From a virus: a stretch of DNA of 64,000 bases. This document shows positions 30,985 to 63,353 of the stretch, one piece after another. Positions within the stretch are counted from its first letter, which is position 1; each line of letters begins with the position of its first letter. Where the stretch lies: the IMG/VR virus record IMGVR_UViG_3300046804_003518, positions 124,324 through 188,323 of that record. One strand, written 5' to 3'. The notes under the pieces were generated by a model. The model made no database searches and was not told where the DNA came from. It saw only the letters and a list, made by a program, of their open reading frames with translations. Made by a program: the position numbers and the translations under genes.

Positions 30985-31049
30985 TTGGTACTGGCTTCTT
31001 GGTATTAGTATTTGGTGCAACTACATTTATAGGTTCATTAAAAATTAAT

Positions 31050-31335
31050 GGTAGTAAACTGACGACTAAAGGTGTTCTGGACGGGGTTTCAATACCCCCA
31101 TCTCCACCAAATTTAACGTGTGTGTCACACTTTACCAGAGTTGACGACTCTGGCACGGACTACGGGGATGACAGGTTTCGACAGGGCAAGTAATAAACCG
31201 ACGGCTACCAGTGAGGCGACTGACTTAATCAGCGCAAACAAAGTAAACGCAAACGATGATGTTTACAACATGGCTCTAGCTGCCTAAGGCACTAGATTAC
31301 CAGAGTTGACCGCTTGGTAACAGAAAGGTCGGAGG
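31050..31335 (+). ncRNA. ssrA: Circularly permuted (two-piece) tmRNA, tag peptide ANDDVYNMALAA
   Basis: Acceptor piece 31050-31109 ends ...GGGGTTTCAATACCCC-CATCTCCACCA; coding piece starts GGGGATG at 31164 (G3:U70 pair); tag ORF 31249-31287; inter-piece helices CAGGGCA/TGTTCTG and GCTACC/GGTAGT. Confidence 0.92.
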
Positions 31336-31360
31336 CGGCAGCTTTCGCTGCCGCCTTTTT
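31333..31360 (+). terminator. Rho-independent terminator ending the tmRNA
   Basis: AGGCGGCAGC-TTTC-GCTGCCGCCT followed by TTTT. Confidence 0.85.
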
Positions 31361-31389
31361 CTTCCAACTGCATAAATGGAGGTAACAAC

Positions 31390-54180: not shown

Positions 54181-55056
54181 ATGCCTAGAGGTGTTCCGAA
54201 GAACGGGTTCCGAATGACCAAACGTCGTCGGCAATCGCTTGGTAAGTCTGCAACCGTTGCTCTTACTCTTAATAAGAGTACTGAGTCAGTGGAACAGATC
54301 CAGGAGAAGCTGACTGAGCGTTTCAACGCTCTAGAGGTTCTTTCGGAAGCGACTGGTAAGGGTATCAACCGCTCTCTGATTGTATCAGGACCTGCTGGTC
54401 TTGGTAAGTCGTATACGGTTGAGCAGAAGATGCGACAGCTCGAGAATGCAGGTCACGTTGTGTCCTACATCAAGGGCTATGTTCGTCCGCTCGCGCTTTA
54501 TCGGTTGCTATACAACGCTCGGTTTGAGCATTGTGTACTTGTGTTCGACGACTCGGACTCTATCTTCGCAGACGACGTCTCGATGAACCTTCTGAAGAGT
54601 GCGTGCGACTCAACTGAGAAGCGCAAACTCCACTGGTTGTCGCGATCTGTTGAGAGCTTAGAGGATGAGGATGGTGAACCTGTTCCGGATAACTTTATCT
54701 TCGAAGGTTCTGTGATCTTTATTACGAACTACGACTTTGACGACCTCATTGCTCGTGGCTCGCGACTTGCTCCTCACTTTGAGGCGCTGGTTTCGAGGTC
54801 TCATTACCTCGACCTTGCAATGAAGACGAAGCTCGACTATGTCGTTCGTATCAAGCAGGTTGTTGGTCAGGGGATGCTTCGTGATAAGCAGATTTCAGAC
54901 TACGATGCTGGAATACTTGTAGACTTTGTAGAGAAGAACATGGATAATCTCCGTGAGCTGTCTCTCCGAATGGTCATCAAGTTGGCCACGCTGATGAAGA
55001 TGGACTATGTCAACTGGCAAAAGTTAGCAAAACAAACTTGTTTTCGTAGCCGTTGA
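54181..55056 (+). CDS. AAA+-type ATPase, conserved in T4-like phages
   Basis: Walker A SGPAGLGKS, Walker B LVFDDSD, FITN, SRSHYLDL; SD GAGGTG. Confidence 0.85.
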   Translation: MPRGVPKNGFRMTKRRRQSLGKSATVALTLNKSTESVEQIQEKLTERFNALEVLSEATGKGINRSLIVSGPAGLGKSYTVEQKMRQLENAGHVVSYIKGYVRPLALYRLLYNARFEHCVLVFDDSDSIFADDVSMNLLKSACDSTEKRKLHWLSRSVESLEDEDGEPVPDNFIFEGSVIFITNYDFDDLIARGSRLAPHFEALVSRSHYLDLAMKTKLDYVVRIKQVVGQGMLRDKQISDYDAGILVDFVEKNMDNLRELSLRMVIKLATLMKMDYVNWQKLAKQTCFRSR

Positions 55057-55081
55057 CATATATAGTAGTCTAGCTGATAAT
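55053..55081 (+). promoter_or_regulatory. Sigma70 promoter of the tRNA/ncRNA array
   Basis: TTGACA-17-GATAAT. Confidence 0.75.
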
Positions 55082-55087
55082 GCTAGG

Positions 55088-55422
55088 CCTAGTCGAGTGA
55101 CCATGAGCTTACTCGACTGCTCTTTAAAAACATGAATTCCAATTAGGTGCTTCGCGACCTGTCGGCAAACATTAGTCAATTTATTTAGACCGACTGGAGT
55201 GTTTCGACGCTCGGCTTCCGTTCAGGATGGCTTAACAGCGACCTTATTACTGGGTGCCCACCACCCCCTCGTTGTAGGTAGACTCATTTTAAACAGAGTC
55301 CGAGCCGTTTTGTTGTTGTAGCGGTGAAAAGAGTGGACCTTTTTTGCAGACTGCTACCTGACCTTCGTAGCAGCGTGGACTGTCACCACGGAGCATAGTG
55401 TGACGCCGGATCAGTAACCGGC
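55088..55422 (+). ncRNA. Candidate structured non-coding RNA(s) heading the tRNA array
   Basis: No ORF; hairpins AGTCGAGT/ACTCGACT, GTCGG/CCGAC, GCTCGG/CCGAGC, GACTC/GAGTC, CTGCTAC/GTAGCAG, GTCAC/GTGAC, GCCGG/CCGGC. Confidence 0.45.
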
Positions 55423-55430
55423 ACTTATTT

Positions 55431-55506
55431 GGACCCATCGTCTAGAGGCCTAGGACGTGGCCCTTTCACGGCCGTAACGTGAGTTCGAATCTCACTGGGT
55501 TCACCA
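55431..55506 (+). tRNA. tRNA-Glu(TTC)
   Basis: Cloverleaf, loop CT-TTC-AC, encoded CCA. Confidence 0.93.
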
Positions 55507-55512
55507 CATTAT

Positions 55513-55588
55513 GGATCGTTAGCTCAGCTGGTAGAGCATTTGACTCTTAATCAACAGGTCGTAGGTTCGAACCCTACACGGTCCACCA
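55513..55588 (+). tRNA. tRNA-Lys(CTT)
   Basis: Cloverleaf, loop CT-CTT-AA, CCA. Confidence 0.93.
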
Positions 55589-55593
55589 TTTTT

Positions 55594-55670
55594 GGCTCGG
55601 TAGTTCAGTTGGTTAGAATACTCGCCTGTCACGTGAGTGGTCATGGGTTCAAGTCCCATCCGAGTCGCCA
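55594..55670 (+). tRNA. tRNA-Asp(GTC)
   Basis: Cloverleaf, loop CT-GTC-AC, GCCA. Confidence 0.93.
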
Positions 55671-55674
55671 CATT

Positions 55675-55748
55675 GCCGGATTGGTATAACGGAATTACAG
55701 CGGTCTCCAAAACCGTTAACGGGGGTTCGACTCCCTCATCCGGTGCCA
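55675..55748 (+). tRNA. tRNA-Trp(CCA)
   Basis: Cloverleaf, loop CT-CCA-AA, GCCA. Confidence 0.92.
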
Positions 55749-55762
55749 GCTATATAGTTTAT

Positions 55763-55837
55763 TGGCGAGTAGATCAGAGGTAGATCAGCTGACTGTTAAT
55801 CAGCCTGTCGATGGTTCGATCCCATCCTCGCCAGCCA
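55763..55837 (+). tRNA. tRNA-Asn(GTT)
   Basis: Cloverleaf, loop CT-GTT-AA, GCCA. Confidence 0.93.
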
Positions 55838-55841
55838 TTTT

Positions 55842-55973
55842 GATGTCGCGACATCCCTATAGTGTAAGAGTTTGTCTGTATGGGTAGCACTATATGAATT
55901 ATGAGAGCTAACAGAATGCATCCTTGCTGTGTGGGGGTAAGGTCTAAGAATGAACCTTAAATGGTAGCCCACA
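55842..55973 (+). ncRNA. Candidate structured RNA between tRNA-Asn and tRNA-Ala
   Basis: GATGTC/GACATC, TATAGTG/CACTATA, TCTGT/ACAGA, GTGTGGG/CCCACAC, TAAGGT/ACCTTA. Confidence 0.4.
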
Positions 55974-55981
55974 CCTTATTT

Positions 55982-56056
55982 GGGGGATTAGTGCTAATGG
56001 GAACACGCCGCGTTTGCATCGCGGAGTTGAGAGTTCGATTCTCTCATCCTCCACCA
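55982..56056 (+). tRNA. tRNA-Ala(TGC)
   Basis: G3:U70, loop TT-TGC-AT, ACCA. Confidence 0.93.
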
Positions 56057-56059
56057 AAC

Positions 56060-56168
56060 TTGTCATTCGTAAGCCATGGGTGATCGTAAAGCCCGAGTAA
56101 CTGCGCCAACAGAAAACTTCAATTCTAGATACATGAAGGTGAGACGCAGCAGATAGTACGAATGACAA
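56060..56168 (+). ncRNA. Candidate structured RNA closed by a perfect 12-bp helix
   Basis: TTGTCATTCGTA/TACGAATGACAA enclosing GGGT/GCCC, CTGCG/CGCAG, CTTCA/TGAAG. Confidence 0.55.
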
Positions 56169-56216
56169 TCTTATTTGCCCGACACCTCTGCCTCGTGTAC
56201 GTGTCGGCTGTCTTTT

Positions 56217-56265
56217 CTGTCTCTGATGAGTCCAAAGGGACGAAACGCTGTGAAGCGTCAGACAG
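56217..56265 (+). ncRNA. Hammerhead ribozyme (type I topology)
   Basis: Stem I CTGTCT/AGACAG; core CTGATGA; stem II GTCC-AAAG-GGAC; GAAA; stem III ACGCT-GTGA-AGCGT; GUC cleavage triplet at 56257-56259. Confidence 0.9.
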
Positions 56266-56275
56266 CAACTTACCT

Positions 56276-56443
56276 TATGGTGTAAAGTTTGCAATGAGCG
56301 ATAAAGAATAACAGGGGCATGCCATCTTATGCGAAGGGATGGAACAACATGTGTGACACTCGATCGCAGGTGCAGAGGTTAGAGTAATTCCAGCAAACCC
56401 GTAGTCGCATTACTGAGAGGCTGGCATCCAAAGCAAAACCATA
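56276..56443 (+). ncRNA. Candidate structured RNA downstream of the hammerhead
   Basis: Closing helices TATGGT/ACCATA and TTTGC/GCAAA; internal CCATC/GATGG, CCAGC/GCTGG. Confidence 0.45.
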
Positions 56444-56449
56444 CTTATT

Positions 56450-56523
56450 TGGGGGTTCGTCTAAAGGTAGGACGCAAGACTTTGACTCTTGCTATCGTGG
56501 TTCGAATCCATGACCCCCAACCA
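56450..56523 (+). tRNA. tRNA-Gln(TTG)
   Basis: U1-A72, loop CT-TTG-AC, CCA. Confidence 0.92.
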
Positions 56524-56537
56524 GTTTATTTTTATGT

Positions 56538-56623
56538 GGGCGAGCGGTGAAGTTGGAGAGTCACATCAGACTGTAAATCTGACGCCAATGGCTGAGTAGG
56601 TTCGAATCCTTCCTCTCCCACCA
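56538..56623 (+). tRNA. tRNA-Tyr(GTA)
   Basis: Loop CT-GTA-AA, long variable arm, ACCA; single mismatches in acceptor and T stems. Confidence 0.88.
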
Positions 56624-56629
56624 TATTTC

Positions 56630-56705
56630 GGGACTATAGCTCAGCTGGTAGAGCAAGATGCTTTTAACTTCGAGGTCGTGGGTTCGAGTCCCACTGGTCC
56701 CACCA
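56630..56705 (+). tRNA. tRNA-Lys(TTT)
   Basis: Loop CT-TTT-AA, ACCA; anticodon stem AGATG/CTTCG has two mismatches. Confidence 0.88.
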
Positions 56706-56710
56706 ACTAA

Positions 56711-56786
56711 GGGCCTATAGCATAACGGTTAATGCAGAGGACTCATAATCCTTTGAGTCTAGGTTCAAATCCTAGTGGGCCCACCA
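56711..56786 (+). tRNA. tRNA(CAT), Ile2 (lysidine)-type
   Basis: GGGCCTAT acceptor, GACTCATAATC anticodon arm like bacterial ileX. Confidence 0.85.
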
Positions 56787-56801
56787 ACAGTGAGGTAGAT
56801 A

Positions 56802-57206
56802 ATGGACACTAACGTAAGAACTTTAGCGAAGACTGCTACGTATAGAATAGCAACATTTGTCTTTACATTTGTTATAACTTATTTACTTACAGGCCAGCAA
56901 AACACATCTGCTGGTCTAGCTGTGCTATCAATTACACTTGGAGCACTGACGTTTATTATTCATGAAAGGATTTGGACTAGGGTCAAATGGGGTAACCTAG
57001 GTGGCTTTGACCGTAAGATTAGATCAGCCACTAAGACTGTTACCTATAGACTTTGGTCGCTGTTTATTGTCTTTATTCTTGGTCTAGCCTTTGGTCTAAA
57101 GGGCAACGAAGCGTTGACTCTTACTGTTGCATTGAATATAATGTACCTACTTACTCACTACACAAACGAAAGGTTGTGGAATAAGGTTAAGTGGGGAAAG
57201 AATTAA
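56802..57206 (+). CDS. Membrane protein with two tandem DUF2061-like repeats
   Basis: RTLAKTATYRI...HERIWTRVKWG and RSATKTVTYRL...NERLWNKVKWG; SD GAGGT. Confidence 0.75.
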   Translation: MDTNVRTLAKTATYRIATFVFTFVITYLLTGQQNTSAGLAVLSITLGALTFIIHERIWTRVKWGNLGGFDRKIRSATKTVTYRLWSLFIVFILGLAFGLKGNEALTLTVALNIMYLLTHYTNERLWNKVKWGKN

Positions 57207-57223
57207 TTTCGGAATAAACATAT

Positions 57224-57299
57224 CAGGGTGTAGCTCAATTGGTAGAGCGCTACGTTTGGGACGTAGAAGTTGGAGGTTCGAGTCCTCTCACCTTGACCA
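57224..57299 (+). tRNA. tRNA-Pro(TGG)
   Basis: C1-G72, loop TT-TGG-GA, ACCA. Confidence 0.93.
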
Positions 57300-57304
57300 T
57301 TTTT

Positions 57305-57389
57305 GCGATTGTGGTGGAATCGGTATACACAACAGACTTAAAATCTGTCGGCTTTGGCCATGTCGGTTCAAGTCCGACCAGTCGCACCA
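57305..57389 (+). tRNA. tRNA-Leu(TAA)
   Basis: Loop CT-TAA-AA, variable arm, ACCA. Confidence 0.93.
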
Positions 57390-57395
57390 TCTACT

Positions 57396-57472
57396 GGCCC
57401 CGTAGCTCAGCTGGATAGAGCATGAAGCTTCTACCTTCAATGTCGGGAGTTCGAATCTCTCCGGGGTCGCCA
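57396..57472 (+). tRNA. tRNA-Arg(TCT)
   Basis: Loop CT-TCT-AC, GCCA. Confidence 0.92.
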
Positions 57473-57486
57473 TATTAGGGTAACAT

Positions 57487-57843
57487 ATGAACAACATTAC
57501 ACAACAGCTTATCCTTGGATCTTTGTTTGCTCTATTCTGTATTGTATCTGTGTATACAATGGTCGGGTGGAGAGCAATTGCTGATTGTTACAGAAAGTTC
57601 TTTACAAAAGAATACTGGACCGACTACAATACTGTTGAATTGGCTAGCTGGCTTGCCAAGGCATTTATTATTGTTCCTGGTTTGATTTTTGGTATTCAGT
57701 TCTGGTGGTTATACATATTTACACTGTTTACTAGTCTTACATTAATCTGGGCTAGTAACAGAAAGCTGCTACCTACATTGGTTGGTTTTAATACAATTTG
57801 GGTGTGGCTATCTTGTATGGCTATTGTGGGACACTTTGTATGA
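57487..57843 (+). CDS. Membrane protein (4 TM)
   Basis: YNTVELASWLAKAFIIVPGLIFG...WASNRKLLPTLVGFNTIW. Confidence 0.7.
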   Translation: MNNITQQLILGSLFALFCIVSVYTMVGWRAIADCYRKFFTKEYWTDYNTVELASWLAKAFIIVPGLIFGIQFWWLYIFTLFTSLTLIWASNRKLLPTLVGFNTIWVWLSCMAIVGHFV

Positions 57844-59039
57844 CAAAAAGAATAGCAGTAATAGGAGCAGGAACAGCTGGTGCAATATCAGCTGGAATGT
57901 TCTTACGTCACTTTCCAGATGATGAAATACAATGGTATTTTGACTCAAGCATATCTCCCCAGGCAGTCGGCGAGGGGTCAAATCTAGGTGTTCCTAGAAT
58001 GCTTCTTAACACAGTCAATTTTAGATACCAAGACTTATTTGCAATCCAAGGAACAATTAAGATGGGGATTGCAAAATATAATTGGGGCTCAAAGAACAAT
58101 TACTTTTTTCACGACTTTGGTCCACCATTAGTTGGTTACCATTTCAATGCTGTTGGTTTACAACAACACATCTTATCTGTTATTAAAGACAAAGTAACTG
58201 TCATTGATAAGAATGTTACAAGAGATACGATTGATGCTGACTATGTTATTGATTGCTCTGGCAGACCAAAAACATTTGAAGATTACAATGTTCTAGATTG
58301 CATTCCTGTTAACTCAGTCCATGTTACACAATGCTTTTGGGATTATCCAAAGTTTGTCCACACATTGACAATTGCGAGGAAGCATGGTTGGGTATTTGGT
58401 ATACCTTTACAGAATAGGTGTTCAATTGGATACCTATTCAACAACAATATTAGTAGTCTTGAGGATGTGAAAGAAGATGTTAAGGAAGTGTTTGAGCAGT
58501 TTGGTCTCCAGCCAAGTGATACTACCAATACGTTTTCGTTTTCCTCATACTATAAAAAGGTAAACTACACTGACAGAGTTGCATTCAATGGCAACGCATC
58601 ATTCTTTTCTGAGCCACTAGAGGCCACAACAATTGGAAATATGGTTGAGGTCAATTCAAGAATGGTTCATATAATTAACAATAATCTTTCACCAGAAAAA
58701 GCCAACAAATTTTATAATGCCTTAAATAGGGGTGTCGGTGATATGATATCCCTACACTACTTTGCTGGCTCTACATTCAACACTCCATTTTGGAGCCATG
58801 CGTCAACATTGGCTACAGCTCAAATTAGGAAAGCGTGCCAGACAAGGACTTTCAGAAGAATGATTACAGCCGCAGTTGACCATATACTTGCAAACCAATC
58901 GTTTCCAAGTTTATTAGAGAAAGCAAAGACATTTCCAATTCCAGAGTGGGGAAGTTGGCCACTTGTGGCTTATTATACTAATATTCAAGGACTAGGTATT
59001 GTTGAACAGTTGAAGCAAGTCCTAGATGAAACAAAATAA
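57840..59039 (+). CDS. Flavin-dependent tryptophan-halogenase-like (PrnA family) oxidoreductase
   Basis: IAVIGAGTAG, VGEGS, YVIDCSG, GWVFGIPL, GNASFFSEPLEATTI; start moved to ATG 57840. Confidence 0.82.
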   Translation: MTKRIAVIGAGTAGAISAGMFLRHFPDDEIQWYFDSSISPQAVGEGSNLGVPRMLLNTVNFRYQDLFAIQGTIKMGIAKYNWGSKNNYFFHDFGPPLVGYHFNAVGLQQHILSVIKDKVTVIDKNVTRDTIDADYVIDCSGRPKTFEDYNVLDCIPVNSVHVTQCFWDYPKFVHTLTIARKHGWVFGIPLQNRCSIGYLFNNNISSLEDVKEDVKEVFEQFGLQPSDTTNTFSFSSYYKKVNYTDRVAFNGNASFFSEPLEATTIGNMVEVNSRMVHIINNNLSPEKANKFYNALNRGVGDMISLHYFAGSTFNTPFWSHASTLATAQIRKACQTRTFRRMITAAVDHILANQSFPSLLEKAKTFPIPEWGSWPLVAYYTNIQGLGIVEQLKQVLDETK

Positions 59040-59047
59040 GTTAGTTG

Positions 59048-59076
59048 TTGACTATATACATATCGTATAGTATTAT
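59048..59076 (+). promoter_or_regulatory. Sigma70 promoter for the second tRNA block
   Basis: TTGACT-17-TATTAT, about 10 nt upstream of tRNA-Thr. Confidence 0.75.
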
Positions 59077-59086
59077 ATCCCAACAC

Positions 59087-59162
59087 GCTCCTTTAGCTCA
59101 GCCGGTAGAGCAGTCGCCTTGTAAGCGACAGGTCGTCTGTTCGATTCAGACAGGGAGCACCA
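59087..59162 (+). tRNA. tRNA-Thr(TGT)
   Basis: Loop CT-TGT-AA, ACCA. Confidence 0.93.
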
Positions 59163-59173
59163 GTTTTAAGTTT

Positions 59174-59181
59174 TATAAATA
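59174..59181 (+). promoter_or_regulatory. T4-type late promoter
   Basis: TATAAATA upstream of a structured spacer and the initiator-like tRNA. Confidence 0.55.
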
Positions 59182-59299
59182 TGTCTTACCCGCCCTACCT
59201 TTCGGTGTAAGGTTTGTCGCATAGCGATGGGTATTTTTGTAAGTAGGAATCTAGGGCATAGTGCGCACTGTGTGACGATAGATGAACCGAGACCTTTAT

Positions 59300-59374
59300 T
59301 GCGGGGTAGAGAAGTGGAATCTCGTCAGCCTCATAAGCTGAAGATCGGTGGTTCAAATCCATCCCCCGCTACCA
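59300..59374 (+). tRNA. tRNA-Met(CAT), initiator-like
   Basis: 1:72 mismatch (T:T), GCGGGG/CCCCGC acceptor, loop CT-CAT-AA; anticodon stem TCAGC/GCTGA. Confidence 0.88.
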
Positions 59375-59381
59375 ACTTATT

Positions 59382-59654
59382 ATGACACTAGACCAATTCA
59401 ATAGCGTGTTTCCATTCGTGGCAAGTATTGCCATCATAATGAACATTCATAGACTATTGAGGGATAAAATAGTTAAGGGTATTCACCCATTCAGTCCTCT
59501 CATTGGATACGCTGGTCAGATCTCTGGAACTACTCTTCTCTATCATCTTGGTCAATACTACTCAGCAATAGCTGGTGCATGGTACACACTGTTGTCTTTG
59601 ACGTGGTATTGTATGATGATATACTATAACTTTTATAAGAAAGCGCCTGGTTAG
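59382..59654 (+). CDS. Small membrane protein (PQ-loop-like)
   Basis: NIHRLLRDKIVKGIHP plus hydrophobic helices. Confidence 0.6.
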   Translation: MTLDQFNSVFPFVASIAIIMNIHRLLRDKIVKGIHPFSPLIGYAGQISGTTLLYHLGQYYSAIAGAWYTLLSLTWYCMMIYYNFYKKAPG

Positions 59655-59665
59655 CTCAGCTGGTA
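59645..59665 (+). pseudogene. 5' remnant of a tRNA gene (acceptor strand + part of D arm)
   Basis: GCCTGGT-TA-GCTCAGCTGGTA then abrupt switch to the HNH leader. Confidence 0.6.
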
Positions 59666-59670
59666 AAATG

Positions 59671-59702
59671 GTAGACCTTATAAATATAAGGAGGAGGTCT
59701 AC
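59671..59702 (+). promoter_or_regulatory. RBS-sequestering hairpin containing a late promoter
   Basis: GTAGACCT...AGGTCTAC stem with inner CCTTAT/ATAAGG; TATAAATA at 59679-59686; SD AAGGAGG in the 3' arm; ATG at 59704. Confidence 0.8.
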
Positions 59703-59703
59703 T

Positions 59704-60126
59704 ATGAACACGTACAATTGTTTGCATTGCAATAAACAATGCAAGAAGGGATATAGCAAAAAGAATAAGTTTTGCAGCAACGCGTGCCAAGGGAAACACA
59801 AGTGGGTTTGCGAAACAGTTCCCAGAATAGAACGTGGTGAATGTAGCGAGGCTCCAACACTTGCCAAATATCTAATTGAACAGCATGGCAAAAGATGTAA
59901 GGGGTGCGGCATAGGCGATATATGGAATGGTAAGCCACTTACATTACAAGTGGACCATATCGATGGTAACAGTGACAACAACCAAGTTATTAATCTAAGA
60001 CTACTATGTCCCAATTGCCATACACAAACAGAAACATATGGTAGTAAAGGTCTAGGCAATAGGTACAGAAAAGGTACTAGACGGAATACATACAAAAGAG
60101 ATTATCATAAAGCACGGATGGTCTGA
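59704..60126 (+). CDS. HNH homing endonuclease
   Basis: CLHC..C...FCSNAC; CKGCG...LQVDHIDGNSDNNQVINLRLLCPNCH. Confidence 0.92.
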   Translation: MNTYNCLHCNKQCKKGYSKKNKFCSNACQGKHKWVCETVPRIERGECSEAPTLAKYLIEQHGKRCKGCGIGDIWNGKPLTLQVDHIDGNSDNNQVINLRLLCPNCHTQTETYGSKGLGNRYRKGTRRNTYKRDYHKARMV

Positions 60127-60187
60127 GAGGTCAAGCGTCACCTTTACACGGTGAATTATGTAGGTTCGAGTCCTACTCCGTGCACCA
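60112..60187 (+). tRNA. tRNA-Val(TAC)
   Basis: GCACGGA/TCCGTGC, loop TT-TAC-AC, ACCA; overlaps the HNH stop codon. Confidence 0.9.
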
Positions 60188-60293
60188 ACCAATTAATAGC
60201 CTCGTACTGTTCAGGCAAGTGGGGCAAAGGCCGGTGGACTCGCGGCGCCAAGCACGAAAAAGGCCTTGGCCAACATGAGTCCTTCTTTCTATT

Positions 60294-60381
60294 GGAAGGT
60301 TGCTAGAGAGGCCTATTAGCGCTCTTTGCTAAAGAGATGGATGTAACAGTCACGTAGGTTCGAATCCTACACCTTCCGCCA
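60294..60381 (+). tRNA. tRNA-Ser(GCT)
   Basis: Loop TT-GCT-AA, long variable arm, GCCA. Confidence 0.9.
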
Positions 60382-60382
60382 T

Positions 60383-60458
60383 AGCAGTGTAGCATAGTGG
60401 CTAATGCGCCTCCTTCATACGGAGTCTATCGTCAGTTCGAGTCTGACCACTGCTACCA
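60383..60458 (+). tRNA. tRNA-Met(CAT), elongator-like
   Basis: AGCAGTG/CACTGCT, loop TT-CAT-AC, ACCA. Confidence 0.88.
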
Positions 60459-60463
60459 TTTTT

Positions 60464-60540
60464 ACCCTCTTAGTTCAGTGGATTAGAACGCAACGCTACG
60501 GACGTTGAGGTCGGGAGTTCAAGTCTCTCAGAGGGTGCCA
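60464..60540 (+). tRNA. tRNA-Arg(ACG)
   Basis: Loop CT-ACG-GA, GCCA. Confidence 0.92.
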
Positions 60541-60544
60541 GTAT

Positions 60545-60621
60545 GCGGGTAGATAGGACAAGGGGCGTCCAGCAGCCTTCCAAGCTGACAATGCGGAGTT
60601 CGACTCTCCCTACCCGCTCCA
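60545..60621 (+). tRNA. tRNA-Gly(TCC), atypical D arm
   Basis: GCGGGTA/TACCCGC-TCCA, loop CT-TCC-AA. Confidence 0.82.
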
Positions 60622-60623
60622 AT

Positions 60624-60700
60624 GGTGGCTGTCGTCAAGTGGTTAAGACCATGGATTGTGATTCCATTATTCGTGGGTTCGAATCCCACCAGTCACCCCA
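60624..60700 (+). tRNA. tRNA-His(GTG) with encoded G-1
   Basis: G-1:C73, loop TT-GTG-AT, CCA. Confidence 0.92.
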
Positions 60701-60715
60701 TATACATATAAGATC

Positions 60716-60791
60716 GGGACCATAGCTCAGTTGGTAGAGCAAACGCTTGATAAGCGTTAGGTCACTGGTTCAAGCCCAGTTGGTCCCACCA
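60716..60791 (+). tRNA. tRNA-Ile(GAT)
   Basis: Loop TT-GAT-AA, ACCA. Confidence 0.93.
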
Positions 60792-60814
60792 CCTTTAAGG
60801 TCTTACTATTTGCA

Positions 60815-61501
60815 ATGAACAGTATAAAAACATTTACAATTGATCAGCAACTAGCAGACCAGCTAGAGCAAGAAGTTATAACGAGTAGTATACCAAAATA
60901 CACTTACCTTAAAAGAACAGCTGAATATCCTTACAACAATAGAAGTCCTACAGCTGGTGGTATGAAAATAATACATGCCCAAGGATTCACCAACGGTGTC
61001 TATACAATGCATAGACACTTCCCCCTCCATGGTTCGTTTGAAGATATGCTAAAGAAAGACCCAACGAATACAGCTGTGGTCGCTCCTAGCATTGCCAATA
61101 TAACTTTTCATCTGAGAGAAAGATTTTTAGATCCTTCATATGATGTCGTAAGAGTCTATGCTAATATTATGACAATTGGAGTAGAGTATGGGGTGCTTGA
61201 TCCCCATCCAGACCTCAAGGATCCAGATGCAGTGACATTTCTTTACTATGTTATTGATAGTGATGGGGATACGTTTATCTTTGATGAAAAAGAAGACAAA
61301 GTGGTCTCTAGGCATTCGCCTAAAAAGGGAACAGGAATAATGTACCCATCATCAACTATTCATGCTGCCTCTGTGCCAATGAAGCACGAAATCAGATCGG
61401 CATTGAATATCATATACGGTAAGAATTATTATAAAAGATTTGGTCAAAATGTTATAGATCAATATAACCAACACCGTGTGAAACAAACAAGACGACGCTA
61501 A
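60815..61501 (+). CDS. 2OG-Fe(II) oxygenase
   Basis: PHPD, TFLYYVIDSDGDT, PKKGTGIMYPSSTIHAAS, R. Confidence 0.8.
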   Translation: MNSIKTFTIDQQLADQLEQEVITSSIPKYTYLKRTAEYPYNNRSPTAGGMKIIHAQGFTNGVYTMHRHFPLHGSFEDMLKKDPTNTAVVAPSIANITFHLRERFLDPSYDVVRVYANIMTIGVEYGVLDPHPDLKDPDAVTFLYYVIDSDGDTFIFDEKEDKVVSRHSPKKGTGIMYPSSTIHAASVPMKHEIRSALNIIYGKNYYKRFGQNVIDQYNQHRVKQTRRR

Positions 61502-61510
61502 GGAGTAGTT

Positions 61511-62092
61511 ATGGCATACCTACCAGAGTATTTGGCATTTGTAACAGAAGCAATTAGGCTCGAGTTCTTTCAGCCTAATGGACTATGGATGTTTGAGCTT
61601 GGTAATCAAAGATTTATTGGTGGTCAGTTTACAACAGGCAAAGAACATTTTGAAAATCTTGGCATGGCCCACACATCAGTGGACTTGAATGGAGAGGATG
61701 GTGCCCTACCTCTTGATCTAAGATGTCCAGAAATGTTCTACAAATTTAGATGTAAGTATGATGTTCTTACCAACCTTGGTACCACAGAGCATGTGGAGCC
61801 AATTGAAAAGCAATACGAATGCTTTTCTATTGTCCACGACGTTGTCAAACCAGGTGGTATTATGATTCACATGGTTCCTGATGTCGAAGAGCTAGACAAC
61901 TCAGGAGCATGGAATGGGCATTGTAATGTATACTATAGAAAAGAATTTTTTGATAAGTTAGCTGAGCATTGTGACTATACAGTACTAGAGAATAAAGTTA
62001 TATTTGGTTTAAGGTCTGTTGTCCTGAGAAAGGAAAATGCAATAGGATTTACTACTAACACTGATATCTTTAACCTAATTGAATATCGATGA
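61511..62092 (+). CDS. SAM-dependent methyltransferase-like protein
   Basis: MFELGNQ, SVDLNG, YDVLTNLGTTEHV, VKPGGIMIH. Confidence 0.75.
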   Translation: MAYLPEYLAFVTEAIRLEFFQPNGLWMFELGNQRFIGGQFTTGKEHFENLGMAHTSVDLNGEDGALPLDLRCPEMFYKFRCKYDVLTNLGTTEHVEPIEKQYECFSIVHDVVKPGGIMIHMVPDVEELDNSGAWNGHCNVYYRKEFFDKLAEHCDYTVLENKVIFGLRSVVLRKENAIGFTTNTDIFNLIEYR

Positions 62093-62727
62093 TGAAGCCT
62101 TTTACTGTACCCAATGAACTAGCCAATAAGTTAGAAAGTGATGCAATGCATCTACTTACTACAAACAAACCAGTATGGAGACTACTTACTGGAATGGAAA
62201 ATTATAGTCCAATGGAATTAGCTAGACGTAAGGTACTTAGTGAGGCAGTAAATATACCACTGAAAGAACCAACGTGCCTCTTTGATCCAATTTATTATTC
62301 ATCAAGAGACTATCAGTCGCATGGTACCTTTGAGCGGATGGTTAAAAAGGTACCTCCGGCTATTCCAAGTATTGTAAATTTAGTTAATTATCTTCGTGAT
62401 GCATATCTTGATCCTTCATATGATTTGTGTAGGCTATATGTTAACCTATTATCGAAGGCACCAAGAACTCTATTTCCTCCCCACATGGATTGGAATAAAG
62501 ATGGTAGTTATACTTTCCTCTATTATATTATAGATAGTGATGGCGAGACATTTGTGTTTGATAAAGATACAAATCAAGTAGCAGGGCAGGCGTTGCCTAA
62601 GAAGGGGACAGGAATTTATTTCCCTTCATCAACTATCCACGCCGCATCAACACCAGTGGTCTCAGAAGTTCGTCTTGTAGCCAATGTTGTCTTTTGTAAA
62701 GACTTCTTCAAACAGAACAAGATGTAA
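62089..62727 (+). CDS. 2OG-Fe(II) oxygenase
   Basis: PHMD, TFLYYIIDSDGET, PKKGTGIYFPSSTIHAAS, RLVAN. Confidence 0.8.
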   Translation: MMKPFTVPNELANKLESDAMHLLTTNKPVWRLLTGMENYSPMELARRKVLSEAVNIPLKEPTCLFDPIYYSSRDYQSHGTFERMVKKVPPAIPSIVNLVNYLRDAYLDPSYDLCRLYVNLLSKAPRTLFPPHMDWNKDGSYTFLYYIIDSDGETFVFDKDTNQVAGQALPKKGTGIYFPSSTIHAASTPVVSEVRLVANVVFCKDFFKQNKM

Positions 62728-62728
62728 T

Positions 62729-63289
62729 ATGGTAACTTTAGTAAACAATATACCTTCAGTTATATCTGATCGAGTAGAAGATTGGGTGACGGGAACAAAA
62801 ATTCCATGGTTTTATTTTAACCACACTCTCGGTGTCAACCCTAAGGGAGCGTATAGCGTTGACCAGGACAAGTATATCATCAAAGACCTTCCTAGGTTCA
62901 CACACTACTTTTTTCCAAACTCAAAAACATTAGTAGAGGATAAGGCTGCTATTCAACCATTGACCGAATGGATAAAGGCTAACTATTTACCTAATTATGA
63001 TGTGAAGAGGGTAATGGGTAACCTCACAACACAAATGGCTGATGCTAACAAATATTTAAACATACCGCATGTTGATTCAGATGCTGATACAATGTATACT
63101 TTTCTTTACTATGTAAATAGTAGCGATGGAAAGACAGTGTTCTTTAAAGACAGAAAAATTGATTGTGAGGTAGACCCTATAAAGGGAACTGGTGCTTTGT
63201 TTCCGTCAAATGTTATTCATGCCGGCCAAATTCCACATATAAATACAAGCAGGTATGTGATTAATATTATCTTTTCAAAGCGGGATTGA
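62729..63289 (+). CDS. 2OG-Fe(II) oxygenase
   Basis: PHVD, TFLYYVNSSDGKT, PIKGTGALFPSNVIHAG, RYVIN; stop lies inside tRNA-Gly. Confidence 0.82.
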   Translation: MVTLVNNIPSVISDRVEDWVTGTKIPWFYFNHTLGVNPKGAYSVDQDKYIIKDLPRFTHYFFPNSKTLVEDKAAIQPLTEWIKANYLPNYDVKRVMGNLTTQMADANKYLNIPHVDSDADTMYTFLYYVNSSDGKTVFFKDRKIDCEVDPIKGTGALFPSNVIHAGQIPHINTSRYVINIIFSKRD

Positions 63290-63353
63290 TGTAATGGTAG
63301 CCTGGAACCTTGCCAAGGTTCACGCGCGAGTTCGATTCTCGCATCCCGCTCCA
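63280..63353 (+). tRNA. tRNA-Gly(GCC)
   Basis: GCGGGAT/ATCCCGC-TCCA, loop TT-GCC-AA. Confidence 0.92.

Follow-up and report, generated by a model that had tools for sequence, protein, structure and literature searches.

The tRNA cluster of bacteriophage T4 contains rnaC and rnaD, two stable RNAs of unknown function (PMC9697503). GOLLD and ROOL are structured RNAs, likewise of unknown function, that often lie beside phage or prophage tRNA genes and may be co-transcribed (PMC5737381). Among the phage examples presented by Perreault et al. (2011; PMC3088659), hammerhead ribozymes flank protein genes or occupy plain intergenic regions. On untranslated rRNA operons, boxA recruits NusB-NusE and suppresses Rho (PMC3177189, PMC4807359). 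Here we describe the beginning of a tRNA array from an uncultured T4-like freshwater (lake) phage, in which tRNA genes alternate with conserved RNA cassettes, one of which is led by a hammerhead ribozyme. The DNA analyzed, called the window below, is the last 64 kb (64,000 nucleotides, positions 124,324 to 188,323) of virus record IMGVR_UViG_3300046804_003518 in IMG/VR, a record of 188,323 bp that is rated complete by CheckV.

RNA cassettes among the tRNA genes

A sequence-only reading of the window had pointed to four segments between the tRNAs, S1 to S4, as free of open reading frames (ORFs) and as structured, novel noncoding RNAs. The sequence and an ORF check confirmed the first statement. 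The second stands as well: the segments are conserved, they covary, and they match zero Rfam families. All four recur in related phage contigs, which were gathered via the upstream AAA-ATPase gene (54181-55056) and by DNA pattern searches (W denotes the window sequence and L-numbers the related contigs). Conservation reaches phages whose neighboring ATPase is ~64-72% identical (L008, L018/L203, L021/L204). The segments are conserved RNA cassettes and not filler, and at least six of these are uncatalogued: S1a, S1b, S2, S3, Hp and S4. S1 is a composite of a promoter-proximal leader, S1a and S1b, and Hp is a sixth small module located between S3 and the hammerhead. The cassettes and the ribozyme are as follows.

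55131..55340, + strand: S1a, conserved core of the leader RNA (~210 nt), found only in the 6 closest phages
55341..55423, + strand: S1b, three-hairpin module directly before the first tRNA, with 8 distinct homologues including L203 and L211
55838..55974, + strand: S2, RNA of ~140-175 nt with five helices, two of them pseudoknotted, and 13 distinct homologues
56058..56172, + strand: S3, cassette of 115 nt closed by a 12-bp helix, with two or three helices inside and a core that hardly varies
56177..56213, + strand: Hp, small conserved hairpin (GCCCGACACC...GUGUCGGCUGUCU) with 6 distinct homologues
56217..56265, + strand: type I hammerhead ribozyme, with its cut predicted after C56259
56260..56443, + strand: S4, ~180-nt RNA starting at the hammerhead cut, with 5 distinct full-length homologues and a 120-nt mini form

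Covariation analysis found compensatory pairs in S2, S3 and the hammerhead together with S4. In S2, 97.6% of cells are paired and 13 of 33 pairs have changed on both sides, whereas its slid-partner controls pair in 31-42%. S3 is paired in 99.6% of cells, with compensatory change in 7 of 32 pairs, mainly in the 12-bp closing helix. For the hammerhead plus S4, aligned on five sequences, the corresponding values are 98.2% and 15 of 44 pairs. Slid controls pair in 26-43% across all three. The closing helix of S2 in L136 has been swapped for a wholly different complementary strand pair, and the Hp stem shows a double compensatory swap from CA/UG to AG/CU among its homologues. S1a is paired in 99% of cells, with loops that vary, helices that are retained and compensatory change in 5 of 57 pairs; in S1b, such change affects 3 of 21 pairs. 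The S3 core is ~70% invariant across seven phages with rearranged arrays, and S2 and S4 retain invariant loops and pseudoknots.

The segments are without an Rfam family, that is, uncatalogued. They gave no match at gathering thresholds in the window, at E<=10 in a 2-kb search or at E<=1 in seven related loci, and S2 alone and S3 alone were assigned no family at E<=10. Scans of the array region and the related loci returned tRNAs, the hammerhead and the COG2908 RNA only. A lead toward the twister ribozyme for S3 was dropped: cmscan of 56050-56215 alone at E<=10 produced three chance matches and zero Rfam twister matches. The region matches tRNAs only in the INPHARED phage collection. When the S3 core pattern was sought in 185,579 prokaryote genomes, five matches were obtained, all attributable to chance (unrelated coding flanks; ~4 expected), and the additional matches from an S1 17-mer scan (L206-L208) are likewise chance only. 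A search of the whole phage genome found no further tRNA, hammerhead or module copy outside the window. Coding potential was rejected for the segments, which have no conserved frame and carry indels of 1, 2 and 115 nt; their + strand has no ORF longer than 49 aa. A 116-aa ORF with a TTG start on the minus strand (55944-56294) runs antisense through tRNA-Ala and spans the 115-nt indel.

Among related phages, gain, loss and relocation affect entire cassettes. S3 behaves as a presence/absence indel: a DNA contig from run X2 joins 56057 to 56173, and L005 is without S3. Of the seven distinct S3 homologues, six have the tRNA-Ala CCA 2-5 nt before their start; the one in L205 is preceded by an apparent degenerate tRNA-like 3' end. 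S1b is separable from S1a, with a tRNA-Leu inserted between them in L004 and L119 and S1b present without S1a in L203 and L211. S2 mostly occupies the space between tRNA-Asn and tRNA-Ala, and other settings exist. The module make-up of the spacer from tRNA-Ala to tRNA-Gln differs in each close relative.

The hammerhead scored 33.9 bits against Rfam RF00163, 0.1 bit short of the gathering score of 34.0 (E 3.6e-6 in a 2-kb search). Its core consists of CTGATGA at 56223-56229, then GAAA, then GTC and A on either side of the cut at 56257-56260, and is invariant in five homologues. All three stems are fully paired (100% of cells); stem I is open-ended and invariant among the homologues, and compensatory changes occur in II and III (five phages). 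Judged by its sequence, the hammerhead is intact and is predicted to cleave itself. The start of S4, previously placed at 56276, has been corrected to the predicted cleavage site at 56260, as the loop of the first hairpin (UAUGGU) pairs with the S4 3' end (ACCAUA); in L205 the two read UGUGGU and ACCACA. The 3' strand of stem I is formed by the first six bases of S4.

The hammerhead stands directly before S4 in W, L201/L212, L205, L210 and L211, and before the mini-S4 in L213/L214. Its upstream neighbor varies (S3 plus Hp, other modules, S3, tRNA-Trp, tRNA-Val, tRNA-Asp), and this constant pairing in differing contexts indicates that the hammerhead and S4 move as a unit. In L211, the series hammerhead, S4, CTTATTT and tRNA-Gln follows tRNA-Val and includes the same unusual tRNA-Gln as the window, a type for which an exact scan of IMG/VR gave zero matches. 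S4 is bracketed by the hammerhead and a downstream tRNA in five different phages. Since the hammerhead is welded to the S4 family, it seems to act as the maker of the S4 5' end. Ligation, circularization or repair of a 5'-OH S4 by phage ligases is unsupported, as searches of the genome found no RtcB, Rnl1 or Rnl2 and the AAA_33 matches were weak.

Further modules were noted in relatives and elsewhere in the array. A conserved module, M5 (...GGATGCC..GAGCAAACCCA..CATCCWGCACTTATT) holds the position of the hammerhead and S4 before tRNA-Gln in L005, L008, L101, L119, L123, L147 and L199, and likewise finishes in CACTTATT-like linkers. The 1183-nt spacer between tRNA-Ala and tRNA-Tyr of L201 (10763-11945) contains S3, at least three more modules, the hammerhead and S4; one module has a tRNA-like T-arm, and the hammerhead carries a 50-nt insert in stem III. 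On the minus strand of L204 (3085-3747), a 220-aa ORF interrupts module M6, which L003, L008 and L202 also have. The ORF bears NUMOD3 motifs of the kind usual in homing endonucleases, and the insertion is bordered by the repeat C(C)AGA(C/G)GATGAGAAG, which suggests an intron-like or homing event inside a noncoding RNA. In the window, a 106-nt spacer between tRNA-Val and tRNA-Ser (60188-60293; ...GCCTTGGCCAACATGAGTCCTTCTTTTACT) is kept in L003, L006 and L119 and is probably another cassette or a degenerate tRNA. A COG2908 RNA (RF02939, 70.7 bits) lies at 59188-59232 in the tRNA-Thr/tRNA-Met spacer and in the same place in L119 and L005; its Rfam class is cis-regulatory, and in this array it is simply one more tRNA-array cassette. 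The array also includes an HNH gene (59668-60126).

Operon leader and CTTATTT linkers

The remaining features of the region are listed here.

55053..55081, + strand: sigma-70-type promoter, TTGACA-17-GATAAT, with 11 of 12 consensus matches, kept in L003-L006
55091..55130, + strand: leader hairpin (55091-55118), present in the minimum free energy (MFE) fold, with the boxA-like TGCTCTTTAAAAA (55118-55130)
55424..55430, + strand: CTTATTT linker 1, ending at -1 of tRNA-Glu
55431..55837, + strand: tRNA-Glu, Lys(CUU), Asp, Trp and Asn, separated by A/U-rich spacers of 4-14 nt
55975..55981, + strand: CTTATTT linker 2, ending at -1 of tRNA-Ala
55982..56056, + strand: tRNA-Ala(UGC) (ARAGORN, Rfam)
56170..56176, + strand: CTTATTT linker 3, abutting the Hp hairpin (56177) and no tRNA, with AAAATAT or CTAATAT in orthologues
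56444..56450, + strand: CTTATTT linker 4, its last T being base 1 of tRNA-Gln
56450..56523, + strand: tRNA-Gln(UUG), unlike the usual tRNA-Gln of the clade and traveling with the hammerhead and S4
55431-63353, all on the + strand: the whole tRNA array, 23 tRNA genes (ARAGORN, Rfam)

S1 opens with a promoter, a hairpin and a boxA match and was therefore taken as the operon leader. TGCTCTTTAAAAA agrees in 12 of 13 bases with the boxA of E. coli rrnH (TGCTCTTTAACAA, taken from MG1655), and it is the sole boxA match with at most one mismatch in the window. The distance from the -10 element to boxA is 37 nt, compared with 36 nt in rrnH P2. Relatives carry a different hairpin in place of the one at 55091-55118. 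By analogy, a tRNA operon of several kb would meet the same Rho problem as the untranslated rRNA operons.

The sequence is consistent with the polycistronic layout that the sequence-only reading had put forward: the segments lie on the tRNA strand behind one strong predicted promoter, with one weak terminator-like site between. That site, the last hairpin of S1b plus ACTTATTT, is the only one in 54900-57300. Only the S1b end (55405-55430) passes the intrinsic-terminator scan; S2, S3 and S4 finish in long-range helices. A second strong sigma-70-like promoter, TTGACT-17-TATAAT (57114-57142), is situated inside the 3' end of a DUF2061 ORF, ~80 nt before tRNA-Pro, so the array may comprise more than one transcription unit. 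Outside the array, a permuted (two-piece type) transfer-messenger RNA at 31018-31378 has the tag ANDDVYNMALAA; it fits both the permuted and the betaproteobacterial Rfam models and may hint at the host.

Each of the four CTTATTT copies abuts the 5' end of the next RNA, as had been noted, and such a cluster of four + strand copies in 1.36 kb has a Poisson P of ~1.8e-5; window-wide the heptamer is not enriched (14 found versus 18.4 expected). The accompanying proposal, that CTTATTT is a shared processing signal, was not supported in a sequence-specific form by comparison with relatives. At the end of S1b, the junctions in relatives read CTTATTATT, CTTATTAT, TTTATTAT, ATTTTTTGC and AACTATTTT. Those at the end of S2 are CTTATTT, CTTATTAG, CTTATTTT, CTGTTTT and CATTTTT; at the end of S3 we found CTTATTT, CTTTTTT, CCTTTTT, CCTTATT, CCTAAC and CCTT, and at the end of S4 CTTATT, TTATTTT, TTTATTTT and TTCTTGA. 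CTTTTTAT is also among the sequences that replace CTTATTT at orthologous junctions. A and U predominate in all the leaders that precede tRNAs in these arrays; 78% of them have U at -1 and 68-86% have it at -3. TTATT is present in 17 of 71 leaders after long spacers versus 4 of 37 after short ones, which is not a significant enrichment.

What every junction linker shares is that it is unpaired, U-rich and 7-10 nt long, with a variable sequence. Because the orthologous junctions vary and the leaders are A/U-rich throughout, CTTATTT appears to be one form of a U-rich single-stranded linker whose sequence is degenerate; the comparison indicates a nonspecific unpaired linker and no sequence-specific signal. 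Spacers between tRNAs in these arrays are mostly 1-15 nt, and after such short spacers the unpaired ACCA of the preceding tRNA fills the part of the linker. Bacterial RNase P base-pairs with the U at -1 of its substrate through the RNA subunit, and its protein contacts nucleotides -4 to -8. An unpaired, U-rich linker of 7-10 nt agrees with these contacts. Copies 1, 2 and 4 fit the form of an RNase P leader, in that they abut a tRNA start, are unpaired and place U at -1.

Proposed release of the cassettes and alternative explanations

We consider it probable, with moderate confidence, that the stretch described here represents the part of a single long untranslated tRNA operon nearest its promoter, and that the cassettes are freed by tRNA maturation and by the hammerhead and persist as small stable RNAs. 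The promoter and boxA matches, the conservation, the covariation, the cassette mobility and the intact hammerhead are observed. We infer co-transcription, every cleavage step, the stability of the RNAs and any function in trans. An early transcript would start at ~55086 from the sigma-70 promoter. The hairpin and the rrn-like boxA would probably recruit host Nus factors, allowing the untranslated transcript to escape Rho and to continue through tRNAs interleaved with six independent cassettes (S1a, S1b, S2, S3, Hp and S4). Cuts by RNase P at tRNA 5' ends would generate the 3' ends of S1b, S2 and S4, and S2 and S3 would owe their 5' ends to trimming or RNase E-type cuts behind the tRNA CCA. With no tRNA ahead of it, S4 would bring its own hammerhead, predicted to cut exactly at the first base of S4 and to leave a 5'-OH. 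CTTATTT would serve as a 7-nt unpaired, U-rich link from the last helix of a cassette to the following RNA and, with U at -1 to -3 and A at -4, would prevent the RNase P leader from pairing. The freed cassettes would most likely persist as small stable RNAs with functions of their own, analogous to T4 RNA C and D.

Several observations weigh against this proposal. MFE z-scores are no better than those of shuffled sequences for S1 (-0.8), S2 (+0.4) and S4 (+0.6), and are modest, about -2, for S3 and for Hp plus the hammerhead. The structures were derived from the same alignments that were used for the pair counts. Covariation in S1a is thin, because its sequence is nearly invariant. The boxA-like match decays in close relatives (11 of 13 bases in L003 and L005, 10 of 13 in L006, 9 of 13 in L004 and L119); for this reason, we regard a role of the element as the Nus-factor antitermination leader of the tRNA operon as an even call. 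Copy 3 of CTTATTT precedes a plain hairpin, so that one copy is followed by no tRNA or tRNA-like substrate and an RNase P cut cannot be assumed there. In L201, non-tRNA modules are divided three times by AATC(C)TTTTT followed by GAGA (AATCCTTTTT, then GAGA), a punctuation that may point to another cut made without RNase P. Degenerate leaders would also predict fewer than four identical heptamers in a single genome. RNA evidence in favor of the proposal is weak and comes from metatranscriptome contigs, at depth 2-7 and with DNA carry-over possible, which cannot give ends or levels: those of relatives in metatranscriptome X18 cover S1b and S2, and a near-identical 238-nt contig in X20 spans the end of S1a, S1b, tRNA-Glu and the start of tRNA-Lys.

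The ordinary folding energies are shared ground for two other explanations. If the cassettes acted only in cis, as structured filler that denies Rho loading, insulates tRNA folding or paces processing and is then degraded, one could also account for an untranslated operon headed by a boxA-like element and for cassettes that are dispensable and differ between close relatives. Filler needs structure and no sequence, yet the S3 core is largely invariant across its seven phages, S2 and S4 keep invariant loops and pseudoknots, and a dedicated ribozyme fixes the exact 5' end of S4 in six different contexts. Moreover, an insulator is unneeded where most tRNAs of an array are joined by only 1-15 nt. 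We therefore think a purely cis-acting role unlikely. We give almost no credence to the notion that the segments amount to helices formed by chance in ordinary spacers or in tRNA genes that have decayed. Degenerate tRNAs are indeed present in some long spacers of related arrays, and the z-scores are unremarkable, but the covariation counts contradict it, as do the many compensatory pairs, the pseudoknots, the lack of a cloverleaf and conservation as far as phages in which the ATPase has diverged to ~64-72% identity.

The linkers permit a different account of processing, in which a dedicated endoribonuclease, either RNase E/G-like or encoded by the phage, recognizes CTTATTT and its U-rich variants as a true site and cuts between all modules, whether or not they are tRNAs. 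The four identical copies within 1.1 kb, the one that precedes a non-tRNA hairpin, the threefold punctuation between non-tRNA modules in L201 and the G that follows the linker in almost every case would all be expected of such a site. We find this account quite unlikely, since the heptamer is not kept at orthologous junctions, L205 joins S3 to the hammerhead by CCTT only, the motif matches the generic leader profile of the array tRNAs, and no candidate nuclease was identified. It is even less probable that the cassettes are selfish mobile elements of tRNA arrays, in which case the S4 hammerhead and the inverted repeats that bound S3 would be mobility features, and conservation would be a sign of recent spread and not of benefit to the phage. 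Presence/absence polymorphism, occurrence in new contexts, the 12-bp terminal inverted repeat of S3 and homing endonuclease genes in the arrays (HNH at 59668-60126; the NUMOD3 ORF in L204) are compatible with this idea. Against it, the compensatory changes mean that RNA pairing has been under selection across considerable divergence, the sequence has no target-site duplications, the genome is without a reverse transcriptase or RNA ligase, and each module is single-copy per genome.

A further possibility, which we raise tentatively and think unlikely, is that they form a phage small-RNA toolbox in a conflict over tRNAs. They might be protein-binding decoys or inhibitors of host tRNA-cutting defense nucleases, or new ribozyme or aptamer classes, and the hammerhead/RNase P bracket might be a general delivery system for swapping plug-in RNAs. 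S3 stands out in this respect, with a nearly invariant core and, in six of its seven phages, a place only 2-5 nt beyond tRNA-Ala.

Comparison with known systems

Like the cassettes described here, the species 1 and 2 RNAs of T4 (rnaC, 139 nt; rnaD, 119 nt) are small non-tRNA RNAs on the tRNA strand, inside a T4-type tRNA cluster and a few nt from a tRNA. The T4 RNAs are co-processed with tRNAs, and by analogy the same may apply to the present cassettes. Profiles of S1a, S1b, S2, S3 and S4 match nothing in the T4 tRNA region with nhmmer, and BLAST recovers only T-loop words in tRNAs there. The T4 rnaC carries a tRNA-like T-arm (GGTTCGAATCC) and rnaD ends in GCGCACCA (...CACCA); S1-S4 have neither, and unlike the T4 RNAs they end in a helix plus CUUAUUU. 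The cassettes are also more numerous than the T4 pair, some are pseudoknotted, and one is ribozyme-led. The small stable RNAs of the T4 tRNA cluster have been unexplained for about fifty years. The set in the lineage studied here is considerably richer, comprising six or more families that show covariation (thin in S1a), pseudoknots and invariant cores, and it provides good material for comparative and biochemical work. The speed with which near-identical phages exchange cassettes is reminiscent of the turnover of counter-defense genes.

The leader resembles that of rrn operons (boxB hairpin, boxA) in its order of promoter, hairpin and boxA, its distance from the -10 element and its position at the head of a long untranslated RNA operon (PMC4807359, PMC3177189), and suggests how a long untranslated phage operon might escape Rho. 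A difference from the rrn leader is that the phage's nearest relatives carry degenerate versions of the boxA-like sequence. GOLLD and ROOL are far larger (~580-800 nt, compared with 35-210 nt for the cassettes), and searches with their covariance models were negative, at E<=10 for the window region and at E<=1 for seven related loci. The COG2908 RNA motif (RF02939), a catalogued small structured RNA in the same array, shows that at least one of the array cassettes already has a named family; its sequence is unrelated to those of S1-S4.

The ribozyme shares with phage type I hammerheads (RF00163) the full core, the three stems and the GUC site, as well as an intergenic, polycistronic context in a phage. 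Unlike the published phage examples considered here, it is tied to one downstream noncoding RNA family within a tRNA array. Together with RNase P, it would form a bracket that offers a concrete, testable rule for the excision of a non-tRNA RNA from a tRNA transcript.

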